From IMG/VR virus record IMGVR_UViG_3300048861_000257: 64,000 nucleotides of DNA; one strand, written 5' to 3'. Position numbers and translations under genes: made by a program. A model generated the notes under the pieces. The model was given only the letters and a program-made list of their open reading frames with translations, searched no databases and was not told the origin of the DNA. The stretch is from an uncultured virus (IMG/VR IMGVR_UViG_3300048861_000257) (taxonomy: Duplodnaviria; Heunggongvirae; Uroviricota; Caudoviricetes; Herelleviridae). Positions 32,834-49,183 of this stretch are shown one piece after another (within the stretch, counting starts at the first letter, position 1; the number at the start of each line of letters is the position of its first letter).

Positions 32834-32842
32834 TGCTATAAT
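32834..32842 (+). promoter_or_regulatory. Extended -10 promoter of the Clp-type ATPase gene
   Basis: TGCTATAAT is a perfect TGn-TATAAT; the palindromic box follows 4 bp later at 32847. Confidence 0.7.
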
Positions 32843-32846
32843 TACA

Positions 32847-32858
32847 CTCGTTTATCAG
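32847..32858. promoter_or_regulatory. Palindromic box, copy 10
   Basis: CTCGTTTATCAG, 4 bp after TGCTATAAT, upstream of the Clp-type ATPase gene. Confidence 0.7.
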
Positions 32859-32893
32859 TGTTTTTGAACAAGTCGACAGCGGGGGCAAGCAGC

Positions 32894-34669
32894 GTGTTCG
32901 TGGCAACGGAACTGAATCAGAAGTACCAGACGCTGGCCAAGTACAGCGCGCCGCTTAAGCCCTCCGAACGGGATATCGTCGGACGGGACTACGAGATCGC
33001 GCAGCTCATGGCCGCGATGAGCCGGCCCGAGCTCTGCAACGCCCTCCTGCTCGCACCTCCCGGTTCGGGTAAGACTGCGCTGGTGAAGGCTGCGATGGAG
33101 AAGGACCCCGAGAGAAGCTACCTCGAGGTCGACCTCGCCAAGATGATCGCCGGCCTTCGAAACCCGGACGAGATGGCAGCACTGCTCAAGACGCTCTTCG
33201 ACGAGGCCGAGTCGTACAGTGCCGAGGAAGAGCGCGAACTGGTGCTCTTCATCGACGAGTTCCACCAGATCGTGCAGCTGAGCCCTGCCGCGGTCGAGGC
33301 GCTGAAGCCGGTGCTGGCAGAGTCCGGAGCCCGCGGCATCCGCGTGATCGCGGCTACGACCGACGACGAGTTCGATCGATACGTCAAGCCGAACCAGCCC
33401 CTGGTGGAGCGTCTGCAGCGCATCATCGTGAGCCCGCCCGGCCGCGACACAACCGTGGAGATCCTCCGCGGCATGGCCGAGCGATACGAGGTCTCCGACC
33501 AGTTCTACGACAACCACATGTTCGAGCTGATCCACGAGTTCACCGAGCGCTACGTCCCCGCAGCCACGCAACCGCGCAAATCGATCCTCGTGCTCGACGC
33601 GATGGTCGGCTGGCACCGTCAGAGTAAGAGGCCGATGGACCGCGCGCTGCTGGCCGACGTGCTGCTCGAGTCGGTCGGCGTGAACGTCGCCTTCCGCGTT
33701 GACGCGGTGCAGATCAAGGCGCAGCTGGACCGCAAGGTCTTCAGCCAGCACTTCGCGACCTCCGTCGTCGCCAAGCGCCTCCAGCTCTGCGTCGCAGATC
33801 TGCACGACAAGACCAAGCCCGCATCCTCGTTCCTCTTCACCGGCTCAACCGGTGTCGGCAAGTCGGAGCTGACCAAGCAGCTCGCTCAGCTGATGTTCGG
33901 GGACGCCCGGAAGCACCTCATCCGCTTCGACATGTCCGAGTATGCCCGCGACGAGTCGCTCGACCTGTTCCGCACCGAACTGACCAGTCGGGTCTGGCAC
34001 ACCAGCCACGCCGTCGTGCTGCTGGACGAGATCGAGAAGGCGTCACCCCTCGTCACCCGCATGCTCCTGCAGGTGCTCGACGACGGCCGCCTGTCGGACG
34101 CCAACGGACGACAGGTCTCCTTCCTGAACACCTACATCGTGATGACGACCAACGCGGGCTCGGAGATCTACGAGACGATCGCGCAGTACAACGTCGACGA
34201 CACCGGCTCCGGCAAGGAGCTGAAGGAGAAGATGAAGGAGATCCGCCGCTCGATCACCAGCACACAGGGGGACAACCGCTTCCCGCCCGAACTGCTCGGC
34301 CGTATCGACGCGATCGTTCCTTTCCAGCCACTGTCACGGACCACTCAACGCACGATCGTGAAGGAGAAGCTGCGGTCGTTCGTTCAGGAGGTCCTGACGA
34401 AGCACGGCACCCGCGTCTTCGTCAACGAGAAGGTGCTGGAGTACCTGGTCGAGGACAAGACCGACACAGACTCCGACGCCGGTGGAGCTCGTGCGGCGAT
34501 CGCGCGTCTCACCGACGAGGTCGCCACCGAGGTGGCCGCGTTCCTCAACAAGCACCCGAACGAGCGCGCCATCCAGGTCGACATCCGGGGCGAACTCAAG
34601 AGCGGGGACAAGACCCGACTCAAGAGCGAGGCCGAGGTCGTCGTGACCCTCCCACCGATGGCTGCCTGA
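32894..34669 (+). CDS. ClpA/ClpB-family double AAA+ ATPase lacking the N-domain
   Basis: NBD1: IVGRDYEI, PPGSGKT, LFIDEFH, ATTDDE. NBD2: GSTGVGKSE, RFDMSEY, LLDEIEKA, LQVLDDGRL, PELLGRID, GAR. Confidence 0.9.
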   Translation: MFVATELNQKYQTLAKYSAPLKPSERDIVGRDYEIAQLMAAMSRPELCNALLLAPPGSGKTALVKAAMEKDPERSYLEVDLAKMIAGLRNPDEMAALLKTLFDEAESYSAEEERELVLFIDEFHQIVQLSPAAVEALKPVLAESGARGIRVIAATTDDEFDRYVKPNQPLVERLQRIIVSPPGRDTTVEILRGMAERYEVSDQFYDNHMFELIHEFTERYVPAATQPRKSILVLDAMVGWHRQSKRPMDRALLADVLLESVGVNVAFRVDAVQIKAQLDRKVFSQHFATSVVAKRLQLCVADLHDKTKPASSFLFTGSTGVGKSELTKQLAQLMFGDARKHLIRFDMSEYARDESLDLFRTELTSRVWHTSHAVVLLDEIEKASPLVTRMLLQVLDDGRLSDANGRQVSFLNTYIVMTTNAGSEIYETIAQYNVDDTGSGKELKEKMKEIRRSITSTQGDNRFPPELLGRIDAIVPFQPLSRTTQRTIVKEKLRSFVQEVLTKHGTRVFVNEKVLEYLVEDKTDTDSDAGGARAAIARLTDEVATEVAAFLNKHPNERAIQVDIRGELKSGDKTRLKSEAEVVVTLPPMAA

Positions 34670-34726
34670 CCCCAGTTCGGGGCCGTTCGGGCCTCTTCCG
34701 CGACACCTTCCAAATCCTCATATATG

Positions 34727-34738
34727 CTCGTATATGAG
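34727..34738. promoter_or_regulatory. Palindromic box, copy 11 (with an overlapping partial copy at 34717)
   Basis: CTCGTATATGAG, preceded by CTCATATATG. Confidence 0.7.
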
Positions 34739-34762
34739 AGAGATCAGGAAAGGACGTTGACC

Positions 34763-37042
34763 ATGGCATTCGGTCGAGGCAGGAAGAACAAGGGGGATGC
34801 CCCCGAGGCGGTGGAGACGACCGTCGAGGCACAATCCGCACCCGCGGACGCCAAGCGTTCGGGTCAGAAGAAGCGCAAGCCGCAGGAGCTGCTCTCCAGC
34901 GTCGTCAACGAGACCGCCGTCGGCGCGGCCATCGACGTGATGAAGCGCAATGACGCGTTCGCGCTCCCCAACGGCGCCTCCTGGGTGGGTCTTCTGCTGT
35001 CGGCGGACGCCATCGGCGGGCTCAACCAGAAGCAGAAGAGCGACGCCGCCAAGGGCTCCATCATCGAGTTGATCGCCGCCGACAAGATCCAGGTCGTCGC
35101 GACCAAGGCAATGCTGGACGAGGAGTTCCTCGGCCTCATCCCGACGGCGGAGACGCTGGAACGGATGGAGGAGTACCGGCTTCTCACCGACGCGCCGTAC
35201 TACTGGGTGGTCTTCCGCACCGAGGACGGCGGCCACTCGCTGATCGCCGATGCCGTGCACGACACGCCCGCGACGTACGCGGATGCTGTGGCCGTCTCGC
35301 GCGGCACCGAGACGATCCAGAGCCTGCTCCCGGCGGTCTGGCAGTGGTCGGGCGGCACGGTCGAGTCCGCAGCGGAGAGCGACTTCGAGCGCGTGCTCGT
35401 GGGTGCCGCCGCCAGTGGCGCATCCGTCTCCACGACCGGCGCGGCCCCGGCCGACACCGACCCGCTCGGGGACGCGTTCAGCTTCGATGACGACGACGAG
35501 GTCGACTACTCGAGCCTCGCAGCCGACGGCAGCCTCGACCTGGACTCCGGTGAGGTAACTGACGGCGAGCCGGCGCTCGAATTCGACGCTGCGCGATTCG
35601 AGGCTGAGTTCGCCGGGCCGGAGACCACGTTCCCGGACGCCGACGACGAGGAACCGGAATTCGACACCACCTGGCAGACCGACGATCCGGACGAGGGCCA
35701 GACGGCCGCCGGCGAGACCGGTGACGAGGACAACAGCTACTTCCAGTACCTCGCTGAGAACCGCAACCGCGTCGTCGACGAGGACGAGGTGCGCGACACC
35801 ATTGCCCGCCGCTTCCTCAGTGACGACCTGAACCTGGTGGTCGACTTGGCCGAGTTCGAGCGGGTCTTCAACACCGACACCGAGGGCATCGCCCTGGAGA
35901 TCGCCGACGACCCCTCCGACTGGCTCGGCTCCCAGGTGGCCCAGCTCAGCCGACAGGCCAACGCCGAGCTGCGCGCACTTCACCAGGGTCACGTCGATGA
36001 GCTGCGCCAGCTCTACGTTGAGACGGCCGCTCTGCACGTTGAGCGCACCATGGCGGCGGTGTCCACCAGCACCCCGGGTTCGCAGTACGCCGAGCTGATG
36101 GAGGGTGCCAAGCGCGACTTCGAGAGCCAGCGGACCAACGCCCAGCAGGAGATCGCTGAGCAGCGCCGTGAGATCACCGCTCGCTTCGAGGCCGCAGCCC
36201 AGAGCCGAGCCGAGCAGGCCGCGGCCCACGCCCGTGCCGTGTACGAGGACAAGAACCGCCCCAAGCTGGAGCGCGACCTCGCCGAGGTCGGCCAGGAGGT
36301 CGACCGTCGTCACGAGGAGCAGTACTCGCACAACCGTCAGACCGTGCTCGAGATGCGCCGCAAGGACGCCAACGTACGCATCGACGTCGGCAACAACCGC
36401 ATCTTCGAGTTGTTGCGCGAGCGGCAGGCCGAGCAGCGCGAAGGCGAGCGCGCCCTCCTGGAGCGCTGGAACCACCAGCTGATCCAGTTCATCGACGAGA
36501 ACCGCAAGGACGACATCGCCCGCTCCATCGCTCTCGCCGAGCAGCTCGACCGGACGAACAAGGTCGATGAGCTGGAGGAGAAGCACCGCGAAGAGCTGGA
36601 GCGCCTGCGCCGTGAGCACGCCGAGCGCGAGGACACACTCCGCGCCGAGCAGGTGCGCATCCGCGAAGAGGCCCTGGCCGAGCTCCAGTCCCGACAGGCT
36701 GCCTGGGACAGCGCGGCGACTATCGAGCAGGAGCGTGCGACCGCCAGCAGCGGCCTCATCGATCAGCTGCGCGAACAGGTCGGGTCGCTCAGGGAGCAGT
36801 ACGACGCTGAGTACAAGGCACGAATCACCTCGCTCGAGGAGGACAAGAAGGCCTCCGCCGAGGCGCTGGATCGTGCTCACGGCCTGCAGAAGCGTGCGAC
36901 CTTCATCCTCGTAGCGCTCGCCCTGGTTCTGGCGATCGCCTCGATCGCGATCGGCGTGATCCTCGGCTGGAGCTGGGGCCACAACCAGGCTGTGCAGACA
37001 GTTCCCGCCGGCTTCGCCGCGCTGGGCTCGCTGCTTCCATAG
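34763..37042 (+). CDS. Acidic coiled-coil protein with a C-terminal membrane anchor
   Basis: RBS GAAAGGA; D/E-rich linker, long heptad region, C-terminal TM. Confidence 0.75.
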   Translation: MAFGRGRKNKGDAPEAVETTVEAQSAPADAKRSGQKKRKPQELLSSVVNETAVGAAIDVMKRNDAFALPNGASWVGLLLSADAIGGLNQKQKSDAAKGSIIELIAADKIQVVATKAMLDEEFLGLIPTAETLERMEEYRLLTDAPYYWVVFRTEDGGHSLIADAVHDTPATYADAVAVSRGTETIQSLLPAVWQWSGGTVESAAESDFERVLVGAAASGASVSTTGAAPADTDPLGDAFSFDDDDEVDYSSLAADGSLDLDSGEVTDGEPALEFDAARFEAEFAGPETTFPDADDEEPEFDTTWQTDDPDEGQTAAGETGDEDNSYFQYLAENRNRVVDEDEVRDTIARRFLSDDLNLVVDLAEFERVFNTDTEGIALEIADDPSDWLGSQVAQLSRQANAELRALHQGHVDELRQLYVETAALHVERTMAAVSTSTPGSQYAELMEGAKRDFESQRTNAQQEIAEQRREITARFEAAAQSRAEQAAAHARAVYEDKNRPKLERDLAEVGQEVDRRHEEQYSHNRQTVLEMRRKDANVRIDVGNNRIFELLRERQAEQREGERALLERWNHQLIQFIDENRKDDIARSIALAEQLDRTNKVDELEEKHREELERLRREHAEREDTLRAEQVRIREEALAELQSRQAAWDSAATIEQERATASSGLIDQLREQVGSLREQYDAEYKARITSLEEDKKASAEALDRAHGLQKRATFILVALALVLAIASIAIGVILGWSWGHNQAVQTVPAGFAALGSLLP

Positions 37043-37181
37043 ACCGGCGGTGTGGCCGGTTTCCTGATCTCCCTGCCACACCGCCAGCAACGGAACGGGG
37101 CGCGTCGCCACAGAGGCGTCGTGCCCCGTTCCCACGTCAAGACAAGACTTATCGACTCGCTCGGTGAACGAGCACAGGAAG

Positions 37182-40100
37182 ATGGGAAGCCCCGTGCCGA
37201 AGACGGAGACCAACCCGAAGGCGACGAACTGGGAGAAGCTCTCCAATCGCCGCGCCGACCAAACGCTGCAGAACCGCGACGTCTACGAGAGCCAGCAACT
37301 CGATCGGTCCCGTATCGATCCGCGCCGGACCAAGACGAGCCGCTCCATCGCCTCAGCTGTCATCGGAGTCCTTGTCACCCTCCTGGTCTGGGTGCTGCTG
37401 TCCTTCGCTGGCGCGGTCGTTGCCATGTTCAACCCGCACACCGGCCCGTTGGAGAGCCAGGGCGAGTTCTACAAGGTCGCCCAGGTCAACGGATCTTCCG
37501 TCTTCCACTGCTTCCAGATCTTGGACGAATCCGGCCACGCTGCGCCCGGACTGCCCTGCTACAAGACCGAGCGGGAAGCCCAGGACAACCCGCCCACCTG
37601 GTGGGTTGAGAAGCAGACCGCGAGCAACACCGACACGAAGGGCAAGCCGCTGGTTCGTGCCGCGTCCACGGGCATCGTCGGCCAGCTGCTGAACTTCGAG
37701 CTCTGGAAGCTGATCGCCTCGGCGCTCACCGGGCTCATCGTTTTCGCGATCGTTCACCAGGTGATGATGCGCAACCTGGACGCTCAGAACCTGATGAACG
37801 ACACCACCGACATCAATCAGTACGAGGGCGACCAGCACGTCGCGCTGCCCGAAGAGGTGATGCGGAAGTTCGACTGGTTCCCCGACGCCGGCGCCCACTC
37901 GAGCGTGCAGTTCAGCTCGATGATCAGCCACGTCATGCTGACCAACAAGGGCCTGAAGAAGATCGAGATATCTGTCCGAGCCGAGAAAGATATCGAGGAC
38001 GAGGACGGTGACGTCGAGTACCTCAAGGGCGAGATCATTCGCGACGACAACGAGCAGGCGATCACCCGCACGGTGCCGCTGATCGACGAGGACTTCGGAG
38101 ACGCGTTGTTCGACGCGTCGGGCATGCCCAAGGAGAAGCGGCTGCGGAAGAAGTACGACACCACGGTGATCCCCTACAACGCCGACGGCAGCGACCGCGG
38201 CAAGCTCGGCACCCACAAGTCCGTGGCCGACCTCATCAACAGCGACTGGGAGCTGCCCGAATACGAAGTGCAGCGCCCCGGCGGCGCGTACCTGGTGGAC
38301 ACCGCACCGGTGAACACCATGGTGCTCGCGATCACCCGGGCCGGTAAGGGCCAGACCTACATCGAGCCGGTCATCGACATGTGGCTGCGCGAGAAGCGCC
38401 CCAGCAACATGGTCATCAACGACCCCAAGGGCGAGCTCCTGGTCAAGAACTACGTCCCGGCCACCATGCGCGGCTACCAGGCAGTCCAGTTCAACCTCAT
38501 CAACGCGATGAAGACCGACATCTACAACCCGCTCGGCATGGCGGCCGACGCCGCACGTGAGGGAGATGCGCCGAAGTGCGCGCTGTACGTCGAGAACATC
38601 GCGGACGTGTTCTTCCCGCTCGACGGCGGCGAGGACCCGGTGTGGCCGAACGCCGCCAACAACGCGTTCAAGCGTGCCGCCTACGGCCTGATCGACTACT
38701 ACCTCGAGGAGGAGCGCGAGCTGCGCGCCTTCGCTGCCCGCACCAACATGGACGCCAAGGTGCTGGAGACGCGCTTGGACGAGATGTGGGGCAAGGTCAC
38801 GCTCTACAACTGCTACCAGCTGTTCGTGCAGCTCACGGCCAAGAAGATGAAGAACCCGCTCAAGGCGCTGGAGGCACGCGCCAAGCGCGGCGAGTTCGGT
38901 GATCCGCAGGGTGACGACTTCGACGACGACGCCTACGAGGCCGAGCGTGAGGTCGCGATGCGGAAGGCCTTCCTCTGGGAGGACAAGGACGAGCTGGACA
39001 TGCTCACCCTGTACTTCAACGCCACAGGTGGTCTGCCCCAGAACTCAATGCGCACGCTCGTCAGCAACGCCGACAACGCACTGCGCGCGATGGGCGCGGC
39101 CGAGAAGATGCTCGCGAGCGTCTACGGCATCGCGATCACCGCCATGTCCTTCTTCACGGACCCGACCATCTCCACGCTGACCTCGGGCACCCCGTCGCAG
39201 AACACCGACCTCGGGGGACTGTCGTTCCCGCGGCGCATGGGTGTGCGGTTCGGCATGAACTTCCTCAAGCGCGACCACCTCATCGGCTCGCAGGTGAAGT
39301 GGGATGCATACGCCGACACCGGCTTCGAGAAGCCGCTGGGCGCCGACTTCGAGCACGAGGACATCGTGTCCCGCGAAGGCTGGGCGCGCTACTACTTCAA
39401 GGGGAAGTTCGCAGGTGACGTGGCGTACCTGCGGCTGCGGCTGCTGAACGCCCAGACCGGAATGCTCATCCGCACCTTCCACTTCCGCTTCACGAAGGAC
39501 TACCAGACCTCGCTCAACGGCCGGTACTTCATCACCGACCCGGTCCTGGGCGAGAAGATCGTGAAGAACGGCATCCTGATCGAGCTGCGCCGCAACGAGC
39601 AGACCGGCGTGTTCGAGCCCGGCCACACGACCTACCCGCAGATGCGGCTGACGAACATCAACTTCGGCATCCCGGACAAGGAGCTCGGGCAGGCCGAGGC
39701 CATCGTCTCGACGATGGTCCGCTACAGCGAGAAGCCGAAGGCCGTGTTCCTGGTCACGCCGCCGCACCTGATGAAGTACGCCAAGCTGATCCTGATCCTG
39801 GTCAAGCAGCTCGTCGACCTCAACTTCGACAAGTCATACATGACCAAGAGCGACCAGAAGCCGCTCTACCGCACCCGGTTCATGTTCGACGAGCTCGGCA
39901 ACCTGCAGTCCGAAGGTCACGGCATCGCCGGCTTCGAGACGATGCTGTCCATCGGCCTCGGCCAGGAGCAGCAGTTCACTCTCATCCTGCAGACGCTGCA
40001 GCAGCTGCGCGCGGTGTACGGCGAAGACGTCGACAAGATCGTCCAGGGCAACACCTCGAACATCATCTTCCTGAAGTCGACCGACGACGCGATGATCGAC

Positions 40101-41183
40101 ACCCTTCAGAAGATGTCGGGCACGCGGCACCGCGCGTACCGCGACTCGAAGACGGTCACCAAGGACACCGAGCGCCTCATCAAGGGGCTCAACGTCGAGG
40201 GCAAGGTGTCGTACACGATGACGGCGAAGGAGGAGCCGGTCATCTCGTACAACGACCTGGCCTTCATCTCCGAGCGCAACAGCATCGTGTTCCGCGCCGG
40301 TGACGCCGTCGTCTGGAACCGCAACGAGACGATCCTCCCGATGTCCTGGCGCCTGTTCAAAGACACGATCGTCCACCCCGGGCACAAGTACACGCTGCAG
40401 ACCATTCCCACGCTGAGCTCCGCACTCGACTTCGACGTGCGACTGAACCAGCCGGACTTCGAGAAGATGCTCGCTAAGCGCATGCTGCAGGCTGAAAACG
40501 CGGTGGACTGCAAGACCGTCTACCAGGCCGCATTCGACTACAGCGACGTGGACATCACCCGCCTCGACCCCGACGTGTACAGCGACGAGGTCATGGAGCT
40601 GGTCGACGTGTCGCTGCGCGAGAGCGTGTCGGGGGAGACCGGACTGGACCCGGACGAGGTCGACCTCGACGACGCGCCGGAGGGCTTCTACGACAACGGC
40701 GACTGGGAGGCCGACATCGAGATGCAGCAGGCGGTGCGGGACGCCCAGGCCACCGCGGCCGCTCGCCAGGCACCGATCTACGCCGGGAACCAGATCAGCC
40801 GGGAGATGCTCGTGCGCGCCGACGGACGCGCACTGCAGAACCCGCTCGATCGCGAGATCGTCCAGGCGTACAAGGCAGCCAGAGCGTACATGGAACGTGA
40901 CAGCGCACACTTCACCGTGGGCGCGGGCGGCTCGCTGCGCTCCGCGGACGGCCAGACCCTCTACATCGACCGACTCGACGAGTCCGCATCCATGAAGGAG
41001 CTGAACGAGGCGGCCAAGGCTGCCTCGTCGCGTGTCTACGCCGAAGAGGACCTCGATGATCTCACCGGGTACGAGGTCACGGGCGAGTTCTACGAGTTCC
41101 TGGCCTCGCTCGACAGCTGGCAGGGGATCGCCGGCGGCGAGTTCGAGCGGGCCATGATGCTCGCGATGCGCGATCCGGAGTAG
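37182..41183 (+). CDS. virD4: Type IV coupling protein (VirD4/TraG-like)
   Basis: Two N-terminal TMs; Walker A AITRAGKGQT; VINDPKGEL, YNPL; Walker B FMFDELGN; LILQTLQQLRAVYG; IVQGNT. Confidence 0.85.
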   Translation: MGSPVPKTETNPKATNWEKLSNRRADQTLQNRDVYESQQLDRSRIDPRRTKTSRSIASAVIGVLVTLLVWVLLSFAGAVVAMFNPHTGPLESQGEFYKVAQVNGSSVFHCFQILDESGHAAPGLPCYKTEREAQDNPPTWWVEKQTASNTDTKGKPLVRAASTGIVGQLLNFELWKLIASALTGLIVFAIVHQVMMRNLDAQNLMNDTTDINQYEGDQHVALPEEVMRKFDWFPDAGAHSSVQFSSMISHVMLTNKGLKKIEISVRAEKDIEDEDGDVEYLKGEIIRDDNEQAITRTVPLIDEDFGDALFDASGMPKEKRLRKKYDTTVIPYNADGSDRGKLGTHKSVADLINSDWELPEYEVQRPGGAYLVDTAPVNTMVLAITRAGKGQTYIEPVIDMWLREKRPSNMVINDPKGELLVKNYVPATMRGYQAVQFNLINAMKTDIYNPLGMAADAAREGDAPKCALYVENIADVFFPLDGGEDPVWPNAANNAFKRAAYGLIDYYLEEERELRAFAARTNMDAKVLETRLDEMWGKVTLYNCYQLFVQLTAKKMKNPLKALEARAKRGEFGDPQGDDFDDDAYEAEREVAMRKAFLWEDKDELDMLTLYFNATGGLPQNSMRTLVSNADNALRAMGAAEKMLASVYGIAITAMSFFTDPTISTLTSGTPSQNTDLGGLSFPRRMGVRFGMNFLKRDHLIGSQVKWDAYADTGFEKPLGADFEHEDIVSREGWARYYFKGKFAGDVAYLRLRLLNAQTGMLIRTFHFRFTKDYQTSLNGRYFITDPVLGEKIVKNGILIELRRNEQTGVFEPGHTTYPQMRLTNINFGIPDKELGQAEAIVSTMVRYSEKPKAVFLVTPPHLMKYAKLILILVKQLVDLNFDKSYMTKSDQKPLYRTRFMFDELGNLQSEGHGIAGFETMLSIGLGQEQQFTLILQTLQQLRAVYGEDVDKIVQGNTSNIIFLKSTDDAMIDTLQKMSGTRHRAYRDSKTVTKDTERLIKGLNVEGKVSYTMTAKEEPVISYNDLAFISERNSIVFRAGDAVVWNRNETILPMSWRLFKDTIVHPGHKYTLQTIPTLSSALDFDVRLNQPDFEKMLAKRMLQAENAVDCKTVYQAAFDYSDVDITRLDPDVYSDEVMELVDVSLRESVSGETGLDPDEVDLDDAPEGFYDNGDWEADIEMQQAVRDAQATAAARQAPIYAGNQISREMLVRADGRALQNPLDREIVQAYKAARAYMERDSAHFTVGAGGSLRSADGQTLYIDRLDESASMKELNEAAKAASSRVYAEEDLDDLTGYEVTGEFYEFLASLDSWQGIAGGEFERAMMLAMRDPE

Positions 41184-41194: not shown

Positions 41195-41206
41195 CTCGTT
41201 TATGAG
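41195..41206. promoter_or_regulatory. Palindromic box, copy 12
   Basis: CTCGTTTATGAG, upstream of the RNAP gene. Confidence 0.72.
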
Positions 41207-41295
41207 GAAATCCGTTCAAATTTACACTAGGATTGTGGGTGAGATCAGCATCACCGAGGCCGGTTGAACCGGCCTTCCAAGAGGGGAAAGAACCC

Positions 41296-44200
41296 ATGGA
41301 TCCACGCAGTCCCGGTATGCGCCGCTATCTGTACGAGCACCTCTTCCAGCAGACGATCGAGCGGACGCAGGACGCGACCGGGAAGACCATCCTGGTCTCC
41401 GCGGCGCGTGACCTGCGCTCGAAGGTAGAGCAGAAGCTCACCGGCGAGGGCCTCTCAATGGCCGACGCGAATCTGTCGATTTCGCCGGTGCTGCGGGCGA
41501 TCGAGAGCACGATGCAGGAGAACGTCCCGGGCTACCCGGGCATCTTCGGCGACGCGACTCCCGAGTCGCCGGCGTACCAGCAGATGAAGGATGCGTTCTT
41601 CGACATGGCCGGCTTCTCTCGCAAGGGCGCTGACGGCACCATCGTGCAGCCGTCGACCGGTCAGGCGGGTCCCCGCCTTCCGCTCTCGCCCTACGACCCG
41701 CGCTGGGCCGTACGCAGCACGGTGAAGCAGGCCGGCTCCGGTGTGCGCTACGTGCTGGCCAACGAGGTGGAAGAGTACGCGGGTGGCAACGCCTCCCGGA
41801 TCAGTGAGCTGCGCACCGAGAATCTCCGGCTCTACACCCTGGACGAGAAGGGGCAGGCTGTCGAGGCTGGGGCGGCGTACAGCGACGACGACGCCAGCGG
41901 GATGACCGAGCTGATGAGCCGGATGAGTGAGCCGGAGTACCGCAACGTCCGCGACTGGGTGATCAACGGGGCCCGCGGCCAGGACGAACGACTGAACCCG
42001 GACCGGTTCATGACTCCCGAGGCTCTCGAGCGCGCCGCCGCCATCCTCGACGAGCTGCGCAGCCAGGGTGTCGGCTACAAAGTCCGTCGCGACCGCAACC
42101 CGGGCCAGATCCGCGCTGAGATCGAGGGCACCAAGATCTCCGTGCGACTGACCGAGCTGCGCGAGAACGAGCACTTCGTAGGCCGGGTCTACGACGACGG
42201 CGTCTCCACCTACTACTCGACCAACGTCAAGGCGGACGGGTCGCAGAAGACGCTGCCGTACACGCCGACCGCAGCAGAGGCGGTCGCTCTCCTGCGCATC
42301 GCCCAGGGCAAGCCGGTGGAGCGCGCCGACGGCAAGGGCCTGATCGGCGAGCTTGGCACGCACACCGAGACCGAGTGGAACGCCCGCGCGGGCCGTCGTA
42401 TCCCCGTGGACGTTCAGGACTCGTACTACACCAAGAACGACCGCGCTTCGATGGCGGTGGTCGGAGACCTGGTGATCAACGGCCGCATCCCCGAGCCCGG
42501 CGCCAAGGTCCTCGTGCGCCGTTCGGCCAAGGCACGCACCGCGACCGCGCAGTTCTTCCTGGACGCCGAGCGCGGTGAGGCATACCTGCGCGAGGCGATC
42601 GAAAGCGCCCGCGAGAACCTCGGGGCAGCACTCGACGTCGACCGGCTGGTCGCCGACTACCGCGACCACTCCGACGAGGCCTCCGCGGGGGAGTGGTTCC
42701 CCGAGTTCAGCGGAGACGCAGAGGTCGCGGCAATCCAGCGGTCCTACTGGGATGTCCTCCGCGGCACGCAGACCACCCTGCTTCGCTCCGGTGCGACCGA
42801 GGAGGAGTATCAGGCCAAGGTCGGTGTCATCGGAGAGCTTCAGGTCGACACCGACGAGGCCCGCAATGTGCATGACATGCTCGTCAGCGACCTGGCCTAT
42901 GTCGGATCGGCCGAGCAGAAGGTGCGTGACCACGCCGCCGACGTCGTCGACGAGCTGGTCGGCACGTACGAGCCTCACGACCAGCTGCTGCTGGACGGCG
43001 AGCTGGTGCAGCGCCGGTTCGACCCGGTCCGCGTCGCCAAGCACATGACCAGCGAGTTCGGCACATGGCGGAACAACGCCGACATCGTGGCCGCCCTCCG
43101 CGCCACCGGCATCAACGGTGACGATCTCATGGGATCGAGCTTTTACGCCACCGCCGTGAAGGACCGCCTCGTGCAGTTCGATCCGGAGACCGCCGTCGAG
43201 CCCAACATGCACCCGGACCCGTTCGTCAGCGAGATGGGAAGCGCCATCGGCTATGCCATCGAGCGGAACGGCGGCCGGGTCACTCGGCTCGAGATCGACG
43301 ACCAGGGCATCGCGTCCTGGGAGGCCGAGCGGTTCAGCCGCACCGGCGAAGTCGAGACCGTCCGCGGCCAGGTCGGCCAGATCTTCGGACGCGGCGAGCA
43401 CGGAGAGGTCGTCACCAGGTACGCCGGCGGCCAGAACTACCTGTTCGTCCCCGGCTACGAGGCTCGCATCTCGTCTCAGCGCGCCGGCGAAGACCTAAGC
43501 GTGGAGGAGCGGACCCTGCTGCGCGGGTACGAGCAGATCATGCGCGACCAGATCGAGTACCAGGTCGCCAACGACATGCTCGTCATGCGCACCGAGGTCG
43601 GCGAGCCGACGTCCCTGAACGGCGTCTACCGCCGCCTGTACGACGTGCGGCACGAGGTCGACTTCATCGAGCGCGCGTCGGAGGAGGGCCTCGGCAGTGA
43701 GTGGGTGAACGCGATCCTCGCGACGGAGGCTCGTCGCGTGCGCTACCCGAGCGAGATCGCCTCCGGCTCCACCGTGCACGCCGCATGGCGGGCGGAGAAC
43801 TCGACGCAAGCGGTGGACCCCGCCAACGACAACCGCTTCGACCCGTGGATCCTCACCGGCGGCCGCAACATGGCGATCATGACCGAAGAGGGCGACGGCT
43901 TCTTCGACCCGGTGATGACCAACGGCGCGGTCTACCAGGGCATCACCCGGTACCTCGTGGAAGGCGCCCAGGTCGACCCGGCCACCGGCAAGATCGTCCC
44001 GAGCGCGGACCCCGCCGATCGGACGCCGCTGATGAAGCTGCCCGAGACCGAGATGATGCGCTTCGACCCGTACGACCGGCAGCAGATGTCCGCGTCGAAC
44101 CTGCTGAACGCGGCCGCGGTCACCGAACCGGTCGGCGTGGCGATGATGACCTTTGGCGGCTGGACGGCCGACGACCCGATGGTGGTCAGCAAGGAGTTCG

Positions 44201-46869
44201 CGGAGAAGCACGCCATCCGCGGTGCCGACGGCCAGGCCCGCCCGCTGGTCCCCGGTGACAAGCTCAGCGACATGCACGGTAACAAGGGCGTCATCTCCCT
44301 CGTCATCGACCGGGACCAGGACCTCGCCGAGACGGTCGAGGACCGGAACCTGTTCCGCGCTCTGGACATCTTCAAGGAGAACCCCGAGTTGGACGTCGTG
44401 ATGAGTCCGTTCTCCGCGGTGTCGCGCTTCAACGGCGGCACGGCGCGCGAGCTCATGCAGGAACCCAGCAGCCTGTACATCCCCGAACGCGGATTCACGG
44501 AGAACGCGCTCGGCAAGATGCGGCTCATCGTCACCCACAAGGACGTCGAGCGCGGCACCCGGGTGTACGACGACCAGGCGCTCCTCGAGGGCCGCGGCCG
44601 GAAGGCATCGAGCCAGTTGGCTTGGGCACTCGGTTCTCAGGGCGCAGACAAGGTGATGGCCGAGTTCTACGGGCCGAACAACTCCGCCGTGGCGAACTTC
44701 CGCGAGATGCTGGTGACGATGGGCCTCGACCTCGAGCCTGACGGCACCCTGCGAGTCGGCTACGACGACCTGGCCGAGGGCGCCGAGCGCCGGCTGTTCC
44801 CGATGCCCGAGCTCGCGCTCACGGCGAGGGGAACGCTGAACGCCGGGAAGATGAAGGCCGAGTTCGGTCAGCTCATCGGTGACCGCGGCGGTGACCTCGA
44901 GCTGCCCTTCCCGCTGCGGTTCCCGACCGGTGAGCGCATCCCGACGGCGAGCGACTCGACGTGGAAGCTGCCGATCATGAGCTCGCACCTGCGAAGCGGC
45001 CAGGACCTCGACGACGGACAGAGCACCGCTCACGACTACACGAACCAGTACCTGGCCGTGTACGAGATGGCGAGCCGGTACCGCTTCGCCAAGGACGAGA
45101 TCGCCCGCAACGGCGAGGTGCTCAGCCCGAAGCGCCGGAACGACCTGGAGGCGATCATCGCCGAAGCGCCGCGGCGTGCCCAGGCTGCATTCGACACGAT
45201 CACCGACGACCTGAAGCAGAAGCGCTTCTCCGGTAAGCGGAATGTCTTCAAGGAGGGGCTGATGTCCTCGCGGCTGCCGAACTCGGCAACCGCCGTGTGG
45301 ACCTCGGACCCGCGCCTGGACATCGACCAGGTCGCGGTCGGCCCGGCGATGGCTGAGGCGCTCGGGCTCGAGGACGACGACTACGCACTGATCTGGCGCG
45401 ACCCCGTGCTCCGCGACGGTGGCGTGCGCTACCTCCGAGTGAAAGTCGACGAGCGCCTGACCGGCGTTGCGATCAGCCCGGTGATGGACAAGTCCTTCGA
45501 CGGCGACTTCGACGGTGACTCGGTCGCCGTCGTCCGGCTGACCAGCGAAGCGGCACGTCATCAGGCGCTGCAGAAGCTCACTGTCGAGGCGAACCTCCTG
45601 GACCTGGGCCAGTTCGGCGACGACGCGCTGCACCCGCTCATGATGCAGGACTCGTTGGACGTGAAGGTTTCCCAGCACGTCGACCCGCGACGAGCCGAGA
45701 CGTTCGCGGCGCTGAAGATGCGGGCCAACGAGATCCAGAGTGACCTCGAGGACGGTGCAACGACGGACGCCGAGGCGTGGGAGGAACGGCACGAGCTTGT
45801 CGGGCAGCTCTCGGACTACTACCGAGAGGTGATGGAGTCGCAGTTCGGCGACGCGTTGCTCCGATTCGGCGACGCCGGCGACCACGTCAAGAGCGTGATC
45901 GAGGCTTGCATCGACACCGGCGCCAAGGGCTCGATGTCCAAGATTGGTGACTACTGCCGCCACCTCGGTGTCGACCCCGTCACGATGGCGGACCTGGGCG
46001 ACACCCAGCACACCCGGGTGGAGGACGAGGGCGTCATGATGGCCACGGCCGTCAAGTCGCACGGCACCGGCATCGCCGGCGCGTTCTCCCAGCGCGGCGT
46101 CAAGGCGCTGCGCAACGCGGAGCTGAAGGCGGTGCTGGAGCTGACCTACCCGGTCACCCAGTCCGTGCTGCAGTCCAAGCACGACCCCGAGGAGGCGCGC
46201 CAGAAGTACAACATGCTGATGGGCCCGGCTAGGGCGCTGTGGAAGGGCCGCAAGCTGGAGGTGCTCCCCAACGAGGACGGCACTCGCGAGTGGGCCGTCG
46301 TGCGCGATGACAACGGCAAGGAGGTGCAGGCCGACGTCGAGACCTGGAAGTCGCAGTTCGTCGAGCTCTACACCGCCAAGGACGGGCTCAACGTATCGGT
46401 GAACACCGCCAACGTGGAGAAGGTGGCCACGGCCCTCACCGGCCCGGACGGCCGTATCGTTGACATCGAAGACCTCGAGAACGACGCTCTCCCGGGCGCC
46501 GGTTCCACCATGGACCGGTTGGCCTACGGCGGCACGTTCGAGCATGTTCTCGCTGCGGCTGCCGCTCGCGAGAACATCTTCGACGGCTCCGAGAACGGGC
46601 ACTTCGCTCCCTACCAGGTCCGTAGCAACCAGCGGGCGATCGCCGAGTGGGAGAGGGCCACCGAGGAGGGCCTGGAGGTCGAGGCACCGGAGGTGAAGGT
46701 ACTCGTGAACCGCGACGTCCTCGCCGACCACGACGCGCGCGCCCGTGCACGAGGCGAGGGTCGAACCTCCTCGGTGGCGACGACCGTTCGTGCGCCGCGG
46801 CCACGTCCGGTGTTCGGCATGGCGGAAGCCGAGCAGGCAGCCGAGGGGGTCGAGGAGTACCAGCTGTAA
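41296..46869 (+). CDS. Single-polypeptide two-barrel (beta/beta'-like) DNA-dependent RNA polymerase
   Basis: Beta-like: GWTADDPMVVS, PGDKLSDMHGNKGVIS, DVVMSPFSAVSRFN. Beta'-like: GKRNVFKEGLMSSRLPNSATAV, IWRDPVL, DGDFDGD, TGAKGS, bridge helix ATAVKSHGTG..SQRGVKAL, trigger loop YPVTQSVLQSKH. RBS GAGGGGAAAG before ATG 41296. Confidence 0.88.
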   Translation: MDPRSPGMRRYLYEHLFQQTIERTQDATGKTILVSAARDLRSKVEQKLTGEGLSMADANLSISPVLRAIESTMQENVPGYPGIFGDATPESPAYQQMKDAFFDMAGFSRKGADGTIVQPSTGQAGPRLPLSPYDPRWAVRSTVKQAGSGVRYVLANEVEEYAGGNASRISELRTENLRLYTLDEKGQAVEAGAAYSDDDASGMTELMSRMSEPEYRNVRDWVINGARGQDERLNPDRFMTPEALERAAAILDELRSQGVGYKVRRDRNPGQIRAEIEGTKISVRLTELRENEHFVGRVYDDGVSTYYSTNVKADGSQKTLPYTPTAAEAVALLRIAQGKPVERADGKGLIGELGTHTETEWNARAGRRIPVDVQDSYYTKNDRASMAVVGDLVINGRIPEPGAKVLVRRSAKARTATAQFFLDAERGEAYLREAIESARENLGAALDVDRLVADYRDHSDEASAGEWFPEFSGDAEVAAIQRSYWDVLRGTQTTLLRSGATEEEYQAKVGVIGELQVDTDEARNVHDMLVSDLAYVGSAEQKVRDHAADVVDELVGTYEPHDQLLLDGELVQRRFDPVRVAKHMTSEFGTWRNNADIVAALRATGINGDDLMGSSFYATAVKDRLVQFDPETAVEPNMHPDPFVSEMGSAIGYAIERNGGRVTRLEIDDQGIASWEAERFSRTGEVETVRGQVGQIFGRGEHGEVVTRYAGGQNYLFVPGYEARISSQRAGEDLSVEERTLLRGYEQIMRDQIEYQVANDMLVMRTEVGEPTSLNGVYRRLYDVRHEVDFIERASEEGLGSEWVNAILATEARRVRYPSEIASGSTVHAAWRAENSTQAVDPANDNRFDPWILTGGRNMAIMTEEGDGFFDPVMTNGAVYQGITRYLVEGAQVDPATGKIVPSADPADRTPLMKLPETEMMRFDPYDRQQMSASNLLNAAAVTEPVGVAMMTFGGWTADDPMVVSKEFAEKHAIRGADGQARPLVPGDKLSDMHGNKGVISLVIDRDQDLAETVEDRNLFRALDIFKENPELDVVMSPFSAVSRFNGGTARELMQEPSSLYIPERGFTENALGKMRLIVTHKDVERGTRVYDDQALLEGRGRKASSQLAWALGSQGADKVMAEFYGPNNSAVANFREMLVTMGLDLEPDGTLRVGYDDLAEGAERRLFPMPELALTARGTLNAGKMKAEFGQLIGDRGGDLELPFPLRFPTGERIPTASDSTWKLPIMSSHLRSGQDLDDGQSTAHDYTNQYLAVYEMASRYRFAKDEIARNGEVLSPKRRNDLEAIIAEAPRRAQAAFDTITDDLKQKRFSGKRNVFKEGLMSSRLPNSATAVWTSDPRLDIDQVAVGPAMAEALGLEDDDYALIWRDPVLRDGGVRYLRVKVDERLTGVAISPVMDKSFDGDFDGDSVAVVRLTSEAARHQALQKLTVEANLLDLGQFGDDALHPLMMQDSLDVKVSQHVDPRRAETFAALKMRANEIQSDLEDGATTDAEAWEERHELVGQLSDYYREVMESQFGDALLRFGDAGDHVKSVIEACIDTGAKGSMSKIGDYCRHLGVDPVTMADLGDTQHTRVEDEGVMMATAVKSHGTGIAGAFSQRGVKALRNAELKAVLELTYPVTQSVLQSKHDPEEARQKYNMLMGPARALWKGRKLEVLPNEDGTREWAVVRDDNGKEVQADVETWKSQFVELYTAKDGLNVSVNTANVEKVATALTGPDGRIVDIEDLENDALPGAGSTMDRLAYGGTFEHVLAAAAARENIFDGSENGHFAPYQVRSNQRAIAEWERATEEGLEVEAPEVKVLVNRDVLADHDARARARGEGRTSSVATTVRAPRPRPVFGMAEAEQAAEGVEEYQL

Positions 46870-46881
46870 CAACGGCACAGA

Positions 46882-46915
46882 AGGAAGCCCCGTACCGAAT
46901 GGTGCGGGGCTTCCT
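46882..46915 (+). terminator. Intrinsic terminator after the RNAP gene
   Basis: AGGAAGCCCCGTACC-GAAT-GGTGCGGGGCTTCCT. Confidence 0.65.
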
Positions 46916-46928
46916 CCTGTTGAATTGC

Positions 46929-47023: not shown

Positions 47024-49183
47024 ATGGCAGCCCAGAACAAGCGCAAGCTCGGCATCCCGATCTACGACGCCCGCGTGGTGCCCGAAGGTACGGTGCTCGA
47101 TGACGAGGGGGTGCTCGAAGCCGAGGTGATTGGCGACGGCCCCACGTTGGGGGAGCGGGTCCGTTCTCGCGTTTCTGCCGGGGCCGAAGCTGCTGCGGAG
47201 ACCGCTCGCAACATCCGGGCGAACGGCGCCCGCGACGCCCTGTTCACCGAGCGATTCGATGAGGCCCGCACGGCCGCCGGCGACGCCGACCCGCGCATCC
47301 AAGAACGGCAGCAGGGTCGTGCCCGTCGTCGCGATCAGGAGCGTGTCCGGCGCGAGCAGACCGCAGACGTCAAGCGGGACCGTGCCGAACGCTCGAAGCT
47401 TGCTCAGGACGCGAAGACTGACCCGCTTGCCAAGCTGAAGCTCGACACGATCCGCGCGGGAGAGAGCTACATGGACAGCCTCCGCCGATCGCAGATCCTG
47501 GCTGCCGGCCAGACCAAGGCCACGCAGCGCAAACAGCTCAGCGACATGCACCAGGTGTACGCGTCGATGATGGTGCTGCAGTGCGTCGAGCCGCTGCGCC
47601 AGGGGCTTCGCGGACACAACATCGTCAACGCGCTCGGCATGGGTGCCTCGATGTGGCTGCTCTCGCCGAACTTCCGTGTGCAGGTGCAGAACTTCGTCGG
47701 CCAGGTGGGCGACGCGATCCGGGAAAAGATCGACGGTCGCGGTGACAAGAAGGACGCGAAGGCCCAGAGCCGCTTCGAGAAGCTGGCCAGCCGCGGCAAG
47801 GGTGACCAGCTCGCCGCCCGTTGGCGGAAGCGGCTGGACCGGATCGAGAACGCCGAGCGCGGCCACCGCCTGCCGTTCACCGCACAGAGCGCGGCGATGA
47901 CCGAGGTCGCGCTTGCCGAGGCCGCCTACGCTGACATGCGACGCCCCGGCGCTGACCGCCGCGCGGTGCAGGACCGCTACGAGTCTGCGCTGTCCGCCCT
48001 GTACGAGTACGTCGATGACGACGGGCTGGACCGCGACGAGGTCTCGCGCTCGATGCGTGTGATCGTGGGCCAGCGGTTGGAGGCAGACCCGTCGATCGCG
48101 AACGTCTTCAGCGAGTTGGGTCACGGGCGTTTCACCAAAAGCGAGCCGCGCGAGGTCTACATCAACGGCACCACCGACACCGCGACCGTGTGGACCGGTG
48201 ACTTCGTCGACTCCTACGAAGGGCGCACGATCTCCGCAGGCTCCTTCAGCCTGCGGCCACCCATGGGCGTGAACGAGCACCGGGTGCTCTCTGCGGAAAC
48301 ACTCGCGGCGGAGCTGACCAGCGCCCGCACCGTCGCAGAGATGAACGACGCTCTCTCGCAGTACGTCGTCGCCGCGTCGGTCGGCCAGTACCCGGCGGTG
48401 GTCGACGAGCTCGAGGACCGCGCCGCACAGCGCCGGTTTGGCAAGGTGCACACGATGTTCGCGTCGATGCAGGCTGACGGACTCAGCGCCGAAGAGCAGC
48501 ACTTCGCCTACAGCGCCGCGTACGTGGACGCCGTCGAGGTCGCTCAGCGTCTGAAGCCGGAGCTCAGCGCCGCGTGGGTCGCCCAGTACGGCGAGAACTG
48601 GCGGGAGAAGGTCGCCGAGGACATCGCTCGCTACAACGCCATGGGCGCGGCCGCGGAGCGCGAGAGGCGCGGCCCGACCGATGGTGGCCACTTCCCGTCG
48701 TCGGGCACCCACCCGCACGGACAGGCTCGCGATGAAGAGGCATACTCCACTGAGGACATCGTCGACGCCGAGGTCGTCGACGACTTGGATGCGCACCAGA
48801 TGCCGAGTCGAGGCGACCGTTCGCGGCCCACCCCGCCTCGGCCAGGTACAGCTCGTCGCTCGCGGGCGCTGGAAGACCTCGTCTATGAGGGAGACGTGCT
48901 GCCCGACACGACGCGCGGGGCGGACGCCGAGATCATTAACGGTGAACTCGTAGAAACGGCCGAGCTCGGCGCAGCACCCAACCGCGCAGCCATCCTCGCC
49001 GGGGCGGCGAGCACGGTGGAAGGGCTCGACGAGGACGAGCACGCCGACCGGTCGACCGCCGCCGGACGCATCCGCCGCGCCCGCGTGAACCAGCACTACA
49101 ACGAAGTGGACACCGGCGGCATCACCGGCATCGGTCGGGACGACGCCGAGCCACTGCAGGACGTGGATTTCCAGCTGGGTTGA
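47024..49183 (+). CDS. Large helical hypothetical protein downstream of the RNAP
   Basis: RBS AGAGGA before ATG 47024; ~719 aa; no motif recognised. Confidence 0.75.
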   Translation: MAAQNKRKLGIPIYDARVVPEGTVLDDEGVLEAEVIGDGPTLGERVRSRVSAGAEAAAETARNIRANGARDALFTERFDEARTAAGDADPRIQERQQGRARRRDQERVRREQTADVKRDRAERSKLAQDAKTDPLAKLKLDTIRAGESYMDSLRRSQILAAGQTKATQRKQLSDMHQVYASMMVLQCVEPLRQGLRGHNIVNALGMGASMWLLSPNFRVQVQNFVGQVGDAIREKIDGRGDKKDAKAQSRFEKLASRGKGDQLAARWRKRLDRIENAERGHRLPFTAQSAAMTEVALAEAAYADMRRPGADRRAVQDRYESALSALYEYVDDDGLDRDEVSRSMRVIVGQRLEADPSIANVFSELGHGRFTKSEPREVYINGTTDTATVWTGDFVDSYEGRTISAGSFSLRPPMGVNEHRVLSAETLAAELTSARTVAEMNDALSQYVVAASVGQYPAVVDELEDRAAQRRFGKVHTMFASMQADGLSAEEQHFAYSAAYVDAVEVAQRLKPELSAAWVAQYGENWREKVAEDIARYNAMGAAAERERRGPTDGGHFPSSGTHPHGQARDEEAYSTEDIVDAEVVDDLDAHQMPSRGDRSRPTPPRPGTARRSRALEDLVYEGDVLPDTTRGADAEIINGELVETAELGAAPNRAAILAGAASTVEGLDEDEHADRSTAAGRIRRARVNQHYNEVDTGGITGIGRDDAEPLQDVDFQLG

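Follow-up and report, generated by a model that had tools for sequence, protein, structure and literature searches.

A predicted single-chain, two-barrel RNA polymerase of the NCgl1702-like family is a conserved neighbor of the coupling-protein gene in conjugative elements of Actinomycetota

Here, we present a computational analysis of a large gene in a 64,000-nucleotide (nt) stretch of DNA, IMG/VR record IMGVR_UViG_3300048861_000257 (referred to as the window; positions are counted from its first letter). The gene lies on a conjugative element assigned to a high-GC Gram-positive bacterium. It encodes a protein that belongs to the superfamily of two-barrel (double-psi beta-barrel) RNA polymerases (RNAPs) and that combines counterparts of the beta and beta' subunits in one chain. 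Judged by its sequence, the protein is a further member of a computationally predicted family, the NCgl1702-like family, which itself was already known. The present analysis adds that this family is large and, in Actinomycetota, forms a fixed neighbor of the coupling protein; plasmids of Staphylococcus and Lactococcus also carry relatives. We consider it reasonably probable that the protein is an active, sigma-independent, single-chain DNA-dependent RNAP that serves its element during transfer or establishment. The gene is the following:

41296..46869, plus strand: single-chain two-barrel RNAP gene of the NCgl1702-like family (open frame, translation; 1857 amino acids [aa])

The reading frame is uninterrupted over 1857 codons (41296-46869, plus strand), and the ATG at 41296 as the start codon fits the conserved N terminus of the relatives, in which M1, G7, R9, and Y11 align. 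An earlier note made from the letters of the window had listed catalytic motifs of both large RNAP subunits together with their positions, and all of these motifs are present in the translation, each in its place:

aa 928-940, plus strand: beta-like motif RQQMSASNLLNAA (translation)
aa 948-965, plus strand: beta-like motif VAMMTFGGWTADDPMVVS (translation)
aa 987-1001, nt 44254-44298, plus strand: beta-type active-site motif GDKLSDMHGNKGVIS with two lysines, K989 and K997 (translation, conservation)
aa 1033-1046, plus strand: beta-like motif DVVMSPFSAVSRFN (translation)
aa 1313-1334, plus strand: beta'-like motif GKRNVFKEGLMSSRLPNSATAV (translation)
aa 1367-1372, plus strand: WRDPVL (translation)
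aa 1404-1408, nt 45505-45519, plus strand: DFDGD, Mg-binding aspartate triad of the second barrel (translation, conservation)
aa 1541-1546, plus strand: TGAKGS (translation)
aa 1584-1592, plus strand: bridge-helix-like motif TAVKSHGTG (translation)
aa 1618-1629, nt 46147-46182, plus strand: trigger-loop-like motif YPVTQSVLQSKH (translation)

These motifs are strongly conserved. In an alignment of 68 members that are 31-55% identical to the window protein (fragment numbering + 657 gives the protein numbering used here), D988, K989, N996, K997, R1368, P1370, D1404, D1406, G1407, D1408, K1544, G1595, and K1628 are invariant, and H1629 is near-invariant (≥90% of the alignment). Moreover, of the 298 family proteins that reach 1500 aa, 297 retain D-x-DGD, the lone exception being a 1500-aa piece. 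The invariant columns and the retention of D-x-DGD argue that the catalytic set is under strong purifying selection.

The family is large. Using aa 900-1700 in a word-indexed search in which 8000 candidates were scored, we found 777 relatives at E ≤1e-3; the 120 relatives listed out of these are 1389-2327 aa long, nearly all are annotated as hypothetical, and their named sources include Plantibacter, Cryobacterium, Microbacterium, Arthrobacter, Nocardiopsis, Actinomadura, and Streptomyces. When the 50%-identity representatives were searched exhaustively with aa 658-1857, 559 clusters matched at E ≤1e-3, and 385 of them reached E ≤1e-30. The domains matched in 20 long members (2299-2884 aa) are those of RNAPs, besides one YpsA/SLOG domain, which is located at the C terminus of P0217, a metagenomic member of 2393 aa (E 9.8e-12). 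The assignment to the NCgl1702 family, which the earlier note had proposed as a possibility in need of verification, is supported by six NCgl1702 segments printed in Supplementary data S1 of PMC2919709, which are near-identical to the window protein when compared by eye. The printed blocks comprise a switch-2-like block, WRDPV.RDGGVRYLRV...SFDGDFDGDSVG, TGAKGS, and GDKLSD.HGNK...VVM.PFSA.SRFNGGTARE; PMC7824862 classes the NCgl1702 family among mobile elements. The features of the family, i.e., a chain of about 1800-2500 aa with a beta-like and then a beta'-like core that is encoded on a mobile element, are also those of the window protein.

The sequence was also compared with known proteins. 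Pfam recognizes only two short stretches of the protein, RNA_pol_Rpb2_6 (aa 980-1006, E 4.5e-6) and RNA_pol_Rpb1_2 (aa 1358-1425, E 8.4e-6), both above the gathering score. The NCBIfam rpoB and rpoC models reach 11-20 bits versus cut-offs of 801-1042, and because these scores are far under the equivalog cut-offs, a cellular RpoB or RpoC ortholog is ruled out. A profile of the 68 relatives gave 177 matches at E ≤1 among PDB sequences, with 6j9e_D as the best (E 2.7e-16), and each of the best 60 of the 177 matches is a largest subunit (beta', Rpb1, A', gamma). The match covers ~210 positions with the LPVL..LR..DG segment, the switch-2-like block, WRDP, and DFDGD; a second, weak stretch covers GAKGS, and the bridge-helix/trigger-loop region matches PDB chains weakly at the sequence level (stretch E 0.13-1.9). 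For the beta-like part, hhalign against three actinobacterial RpoB sequences returned a probability of 88% over 60 columns, comprising the block GDK...HGNKGV...SRFN. When the PDB was searched with the window protein alone instead of a profile, the best match was gp96 of phage P23-45 (8h2n_A, E 2.2e-5, aa 1344-1447). A conjugative DNA primase of the DnaG/Toprim or AEP type was also considered as the identity of the protein and rejected, since no primase family matched it in the Pfam or NCBIfam scans; this result concerns family membership and not the capacity for priming.

The predicted structure resolves two halves. An AlphaFold2 model of aa 658-1857, based on 40 aligned sequences, has a mean predicted local distance difference test score (pLDDT) of 88.2 and a predicted template modeling score (pTM) of 0.85. 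Using this core model, a Foldseek search of the PDB gave at least 500 matches at E ≤0.001, foremost bacterial beta' chains (5x22_D, E 1.8e-12, template modeling scores 0.32/0.27). A second structure search was independent of Foldseek, and the residue ranges of its alignments are given in model numbering. Together, these analyses define the following regions:

aa 658-1128, 43267..44679, plus strand: beta-like (second-largest-subunit-like) half with the lysine-bearing barrel (structure alignment, hhalign)
aa 1147-1795, 44734..46680, plus strand: beta'-like (largest-subunit-like) half (structure alignment, Foldseek, PDB profile match)
aa 1574-1649, 46015..46242, plus strand: bridge-helix and trigger-loop-like region (model helices, invariant G1595 and K1628, near-invariant H1629)

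Residues 1-471 of the model align with yeast Rpa2 (4c2m_B; Z 12.3, 405 aligned, root mean square deviation [rmsd] 3.7), with bacterial beta (6j9e_C; Z 12.3, 394 aligned, rmsd 3.2), and with the beta-like chains of phages phiKZ and AR9 (Z 13.0 and 11.8, respectively). Residues 490-1117/1138 align with human Pol I A190 (7ob9_A; Z 16.2, 481 aligned, rmsd 3.8), Drosophila Rpb1 (9mu7_A; Z 16.0), archaeal A' (2pmz_A; Z 15.7), and Mycobacterium tuberculosis beta' (6edt_D; Z 12.9). Single-chain enzymes align across both halves, i.e., QDE-1 (7y7p_A; Z 13.3, 483 aligned, rmsd 4.9, model residues 58-1115), gp62 of P74 (8f5m; Z 11.4, 355 aligned), plant RDR2 (Z 10.8), and P23-45 gp96 (Z 10.7, 282 aligned), while isolated double-psi barrels (designed or Cdc48-type) match model residues 672-758 with Z 8-9 and PolD matches the core with Z 8.1. 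Long helices at fragment residues 917-969 and 974-992 fall in the bridge/trigger-like region, through which the Rpb1-type alignments pass and which is conserved in a Staphylococcus plasmid relative, too. Two expectations of the earlier note therefore hold, namely that one chain carries a beta-like half followed by a beta'-like half and that a model would contain two barrels: beta and Rpa2 align with the first half and beta' and Rpb1 with the second, and both barrels and their catalytic residues are conserved. The adjective "minimal" in that note overstated the reduction, as the polymerase part comprises ~1150 aa that match ~400 residues of beta and ~480-540 of beta'/Rpb1.

From the conservation and the predicted fold, we infer that the protein is enzymatically active. 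We propose that the beta-like and beta'-like halves would fold into one active center. The two lysines would come from the beta-like half, whereas the beta'-like half would contribute the bridge helix and the trigger loop in addition to the switch-2-like segment and the magnesium site DFDGD. The structural matches to QDE-1 and RDR2 over both barrels, together with a large N terminus that lacks a known fold, could also be explained if the polymerase fold had been retained for another nucleic-acid task, such as RNA-templated synthesis as in QDE-1/RDR enzymes, counter-defense, or a structural or motor role at the transfer origin. However, DNA-dependent large subunits score at least as high in sequence and structure, and the invariance of the full catalytic set speaks against a non-catalytic role; we regard this explanation as very improbable.

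The part of the protein that precedes the polymerase core has no counterpart in our searches:

aa 1 to ~640, 41296..43215, plus strand: N-terminal family-specific region without a known domain (AlphaFold2 model, fold searches)

This region had been put at ~900 aa; it is really ~640 aa, since residue 1 of the core model (aa 658) already aligns to beta. An AlphaFold2 model of aa 1-735 (pLDDT 89.4, pTM 0.73) has a confident fold, and the region is 23-44% identical across 35 relatives. Pfam and NCBIfam gave no match to it; neither Foldseek against the PDB (best E 0.048) nor a search of BFVD (best E 9e-3) gave any match to the model at E ≤0.001, no chain among the 48,161 compared by VIA-align reached Z ≥5, and aa 1-660 had no usable match in the ESM Atlas. 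Standalone copies were limited to four short proteins at E ≤1e-3 among 8000 candidates, which by appearance are pieces at contig ends. The top VIA-align row places the DNA-binding C-terminal domain of T4 MotA on aa 230-339 with Z 4.8, which is under the noise level (88 aligned, rmsd 2.9), and this segment overlaps the best-conserved N-terminal stretch. We treat this match only as a lead toward a possible role of the N terminus in promoter recognition. A confidently folded, unmatched region of ~640 aa would be the place to seek new modes of promoter or template recognition.

The gene is a fixed component of a Gram-positive conjugation module. The location on a conjugative element, as claimed in the earlier note, is supported by a MobL relaxase and a VirD4-type coupling protein; the same note had reported no alpha, omega, or sigma gene nearby, and consistently, Pfam identified no such domain in the 41 large and 47 small open reading frames (ORFs) of the window. 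The module contains the following genes around the RNAP gene:

28831..31053, plus strand: MobL-family relaxase (Pfam MobL, E 6.2e-78)
32756..34669, plus strand: ClpB/ClpA/ClpV-like double-AAA+ ATPase, 637 aa (Pfam AAA_2, E 4.3e-39; NCBIfam ClpB, E 7.8e-79)
34724..37042, plus strand: conserved protein of unknown function, 772 aa, encoded between the ATPase and coupling-protein genes (in 18/18 loci; no family, no PDB match)
37164..41183, plus strand: type IV coupling protein of the VirD4/TraG type with 1339 aa, gene immediately upstream of the RNAP gene (Pfam T4SS-DNA_transf, E 1.3e-17; TraG-D_C, E 4e-12)
47024..49183, plus strand: conserved unknown protein directly downstream of the RNAP gene (start from ribosome binding site and ATG; in 18/18 loci; no family, no PDB match below E 0.1)

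The order ClpB-like ATPase, unknown protein, coupling protein, RNAP, and unknown protein is the same in all 18 related loci that were fetched from genomes of Leifsonia, Microbacterium, Plantibacter, Arthrobacter, Psychromicrobium, Kribbella, Actinomadura, Streptomyces, and Nocardiopsis species and, in addition, in the Gordonia plasmid pGKT2. The coupling-protein gene lies upstream of the RNAP gene in 18/18 loci and the ClpB-like ATPase is also present in every one of them (in L013 as an edge piece only), while a fragment of the MobL relaxase was found at the upstream edge, where the fetched flank ends, in 8/18 loci. Against the NCBIfam model conju_CD1115, the coupling protein scores E 1.5e-42, which is under the cut-off of the model. 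It is a very long protein in which the VirD4 part begins only around aa 640 and is followed by ~290 further residues; in two loci (L008:4663-9801 and L013:2655-7781), its ORF is ~1710 aa and ~2 kb separate the conserved part from the RNAP gene. By its sequence, the ATPase is a relative and not an ortholog of ClpB, as the NCBIfam ClpB match is far under the cut-off; its Walker A motifs are at aa 100 and 363, and with 637 aa it is short compared with the ~850 positions of ClpB models. Such an ATPase is unusual in a type IV system, where it could act on protein substrates by unfolding them or on the relaxosome by remodeling it.

Most contigs with these loci are 120-410 kb long. For two loci the contig is far longer (4.7 and 7.7 Mb), indicating that integrated forms exist. 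In the Arthrobacter sp. Hiyo8 chromosome (L014, G002:C1:133956-137555), the RNAP match is split into two adjacent pieces (query 5-398 and 401-1178) with fragmented neighbors, either because this integrated copy has decayed or, possibly, because the sequence contains errors. The 72,556 plasmid records searched include 13 with a match, of which three are full length (Streptomyces, Rhodococcus fascians, and Gordonia) and 10 partial (on plasmids of Staphylococcus and Lactococcus). A tblastn search of 50,697 phage records gave no match, and the gene was found in 1 of 401 sampled genomes of the phylum, that one being the center genome itself. One of the 401, G004, is unpublished, and no conclusion drawn here depends on it. 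The plasmid matches, the lack of phage matches in these records, and the single occurrence among 401 genomes argue that the gene is sporadic and element-borne. Two plasmid relatives extend the family beyond the Actinomycetota:

L002:13321-18744: relative on Staphylococcus plasmid SAP020A, 1807 aa, annotated as hypothetical (Pfam Rpb2_6, E 2e-16; Rpb1_2, E 1.6e-10)
L003:12787-19935: relative on Lactococcus cremoris pJM4A, 2382 aa, annotated as hypothetical

The staphylococcal protein aligns with aa 653-1436 and 1582-1651 of the window protein and keeps both catalytic motifs, and a coupling-protein gene is located two genes upstream of it; a topoisomerase III gene lies downstream. In pJM4A, a Y-family polymerase adjoins the RNAP relative.

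Because the RNAP gene is a fixed component of the conjugation module, we suggest that the protein makes RNA for the element during transfer or establishment. It would do so independently of the host RNA polymerase and its sigma factors, and it could transcribe the genes of the element, prime synthesis on the strand that is transferred, or do both. Two more specific scenarios are considered, which we rate about equal. In the first of them, attention is drawn to the end of the protein:

aa 1813-1857, 46732..46866, plus strand: disordered C-terminal tail (pLDDT <50, fragment residues 1156-1200)

An R-D-V motif (R1806, D1807, and V1808) lies just before this tail and an Arg patch (R1819, S1825, and A1828) within it; neither varies across 12 sequences. 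An acidic-plus-hydrophobic tip forms the very C terminus of most of the 68 relatives. It is possible, although we would not call it likely, that the coupling protein recruits the polymerase via this tail of ~45 aa as a substrate of the type IV secretion system (T4SS), perhaps after unfolding by the ClpB-like ATPase, and that the polymerase then makes primers or the first transcripts in the recipient. The position of the gene directly after the coupling-protein gene in 18/18 loci, the motifs in and before the tail, the conservation of a Clp-type double-AAA+ ATPase in the module, and the finding that the best single-sequence PDB match is the injected gp96 fit such a polymerase that travels with the DNA. 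However, T4SS secretion signals of Gram-positive bacteria are so poorly defined that no conclusion can be based on the tail motifs, and primase-like genes are already present on the element. Also, the model is full-size and clamp-bearing, whereas the gp96 paper (PMC10770324) favors a flat, clamp-less shape for a narrow channel.

In the second scenario, the polymerase would work in the element-bearing cell as a transcriptase dedicated to the ~45-kb plus-strand cluster of the element, with promoters marked by a 12-bp palindrome. This palindrome, CTCRTNTAYGAG (perfect form CTCGTATACGAG), was first spotted by eye, and the statistics were run afterwards; a general repeat search of the window gave chance-like families only. 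The relevant sites and the RNA structures around the RNAP gene are as follows:

4090, 4878, 6763, 12461, 14867, 21593, 27088, 31059, 31089, 32847, 34727, 41195, 46929, 46959, and 49207: starts of the palindrome 12-mers
41195..41206, plus strand: palindrome copy CTCRTNTAYGAG, 89 nt before the RNAP start codon
46929-46940 and 46959-46970, plus strand: two more palindrome copies ahead of the next gene, with TAAGAT between them (motif search)
41256..41276, plus strand: leader hairpin of the RNAP gene (GGCCGGTTGAACCGGCC type; -18.8 kcal/mol, z -2.6)
46878..46919, plus strand: GC-rich, terminator-like hairpin with a weak T tract right after the RNAP stop codon (-35 kcal/mol, z -7.7; 0/200 shuffles as stable)

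With at most one mismatch, the palindrome has 19 matches versus 0-4 in 20 Markov shuffles, and its 17-mer pattern has 13 matches versus 0.32 expected. The ~15 sites are located in AT-rich gaps, 26-93 nt before plus-strand start codons, between 4 and 50 kb, the RNAP gene included, and no match was found in the 50-64 kb part of the window. In close relatives, the motif recurs at these gaps, while distant ones have another palindrome there, and a related motif occupies the gap upstream of the RNAP gene in L005, L007, and L017. The copy at 34719-34738 lies within a longer inverted repeat (-9.7 kcal/mol, z -3.7). The over-representation, the distribution, and the conservation of the palindrome all fit a dedicated transcriptase, as do the retained elements of a processive RNAP and the lack of a helix-turn-helix regulator among the 47 small and 41 large ORFs of the window. 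YonO, which transcribes the late genes of SPbeta, and gp64 of P23-45 provide parallels. On the other side, a palindrome is the usual shape of a dimeric-regulator site, and a host-type TANNNT hexamer (TATAAT, TACAAT, TAAGAT, and others) located 2-5 nt upstream in ~6/15 sites suits promoters that host sigma-A would recognize and whose start site carries an operator. Moreover, the 64-kb window is about a third of a contig of ~189 kb, such that a regulator may lie outside it. We speculate that the palindrome may be either a regulator site or an element-specific promoter, between which the motif does not decide. This second scenario seems to us possible but, like the first, not likely. A sigma-70 scan of 40900-47300 gave 0 promoter-like sites.

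The stem of the leader hairpin stays paired despite changes on both sides at about 10001-60..-30 in L004, L005, and L007 as judged by eye, and this hairpin may be an RNA-level control element. The same three loci have similar hairpins 3' of the RNAP gene; in the window, a simple terminator scan did not call the hairpin at 46878-46919.

Several findings weigh against an RNAP that serves transfer or establishment. No VirB4-type ATPase was recognized in the window, and the transfer machinery is thus only partly identified. The element encodes an AEP-primase-like protein and a D5-type primase-helicase, such that a priming role is not obviously needed. As the RNAP gene lies inside the cluster that it possibly transcribes, host RNA polymerase must express it at least once. 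Finally, the TANNNT hexamers before the palindromes fit host promoters combined with a repressor site equally well as private promoters.

The remaining genes of the window sketch the element. The window has a G+C content of about 66% and a co-directional plus-strand cluster from ~4 to 50 kb, which includes genes for the D5-type primase-helicase, a PKD/He_PIG-repeat surface protein, a type IA topoisomerase, membrane proteins, a lysozyme-type hydrolase, the MobL relaxase, the ClpB-like ATPase, the coupling protein, the RNAP, an unknown protein, and an HU-like protein. Besides the relaxase and the coupling protein, the window encodes a cell-wall hydrolase and multi-pass membrane proteins. The D5-type primase-helicase (4806-6749, plus strand) is at the left of the cluster, and the AEP-primase-like protein (1114-3222, minus strand) has a weak TOTE-AEP match under the cut-off as well as MarR-like stretches; these two are probably the replication genes of the element. 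An ORF at 22200-23495 (within 21543-23609) has a Walker A motif, GKPGVGKT, and no family match, and a small holin-like ORF (21696-22067) lies before it. The HU-like DNA-binding protein (49714-50061, plus strand; Bac_DNA_binding, E 1e-8) is the last of the plus-strand cluster. A minus-strand block contains a umuDC-like pair (55447-57160), consisting of a UmuD-like S24 peptidase (56720-57160, minus strand) and a Y-family polymerase (55447-56712, minus strand), together with a MazG/PRA-PH-like protein, an AAA ATPase, and an N6 DNA methyltransferase.

Should the polymerase be active, the elements would come equipped with a transcription or priming machine of their own, which would bear on the establishment of conjugative DNA in new hosts and on host range, and it would provide a compact, sigma-free RNAP of the cellular type for structural and biotechnological work.

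Two-barrel RNAPs, i.e., those of the cell type, are known from phages and eukaryotic killer plasmids. In the literature covered, we found no paper that ties such an enzyme to conjugation; the founding papers of the family (Iyer, Koonin and Aravind 2003; Iyer and Aravind 2012) lie outside this coverage, and an earlier mention is possible. By term search, "RNA polymerase" does not occur in two surveys of conjugation systems (PMC4027160 and PMC3218068).

The closest comparison is to NCgl1702 itself. This protein is 2169 aa long versus 1857 aa for the window protein, and, reading the likeness by eye from the printed segments, both have the same order of beta-like and then beta'-like motifs in one very large chain. 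In 2010, PMC2919709 called NCgl1702 an orphan without relatives, whereas we find at least 385 clusters at 50% identity and a fixed position in a conjugation module. According to PMC7824862, the SBHM insert of cellular beta is missing from the NCgl1702-like family, and the beta-like half of the window protein (~470 residues) has little room for it. The same paper states that the enzymes of killer plasmids keep this insert. Among these, Orf6, encoded by the killer plasmid pGKL2 of yeast, joins the Rpb2 and Rpb1 cores in one protein, as described in PMC2919709; it has the same subunit order as the window protein but resides on a eukaryotic cytoplasmic linear plasmid.

With the cellular RpoB and RpoC subunits, the window protein has the catalytic motifs in common and also the fold over ~400 + ~500 residues; however, the cellular enzyme has ~2500 residues in two subunits, and here ~1150 polymerase residues are in one chain. 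YonO of SPbeta and the QDE-1/RDR enzymes, like the window protein, have both barrels in one chain, but neither gave a sequence match among the matches listed, and the sequence profiles favor beta'/Rpb1. In structure, QDE-1 reaches Z 13.3 versus Z 16.2 for Pol I A190 and Z 12.3 for beta, with alignment lengths that differ, and no YonO structure is among the matches listed.

Some very large polymerases of mobile elements accompany the DNA into the new cell, where they are the first to act on it, i.e., the transferred conjugative primases Sog of ColIb-P9 and TraC of RP4, which have a DnaG-type fold, and the virion RNA polymerase of phage N4, which has a T7-like RNAP fold. As their folds are unrelated to that of the window protein, the analogy is functional only. 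Extending it, one could imagine a conjugative counterpart of a phage virion RNAP, namely a sigma-free enzyme of ~1850 aa that would be recruited by the coupling protein via its tail, pass to the recipient, read hairpin-forming palindromes of the CTCGTATACGAG type on the incoming single strand, and start primers and first transcripts before host factors do. We consider this elaborated picture rather unlikely; if true, conjugation and phage injection would have converged on one solution, and the elements would be largely independent of host sigma factors.

Finally, gp96 of P23-45 (8h2n/8h2m) and gp62 of P74 (8f5m) are, like the window protein, single-chain two-barrel RNAPs of a mobile genome. 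PMC10770324 describes gp96 as an injected, tape-measure-fused virion RNAP and argues that its flat, clamp-less shape suits passage through a narrow channel. Compared with its match to gp96, the window protein scores higher on large subunits of the cellular type (Z 13-16); it also matches clamp-containing regions (3qqc_A, Z 9.0), which sets it apart from the flat gp96. As part of a giant protein, gp96 is delivered together with the DNA and belongs to a virion, whereas the window protein belongs to a plasmid or an integrative and conjugative element.

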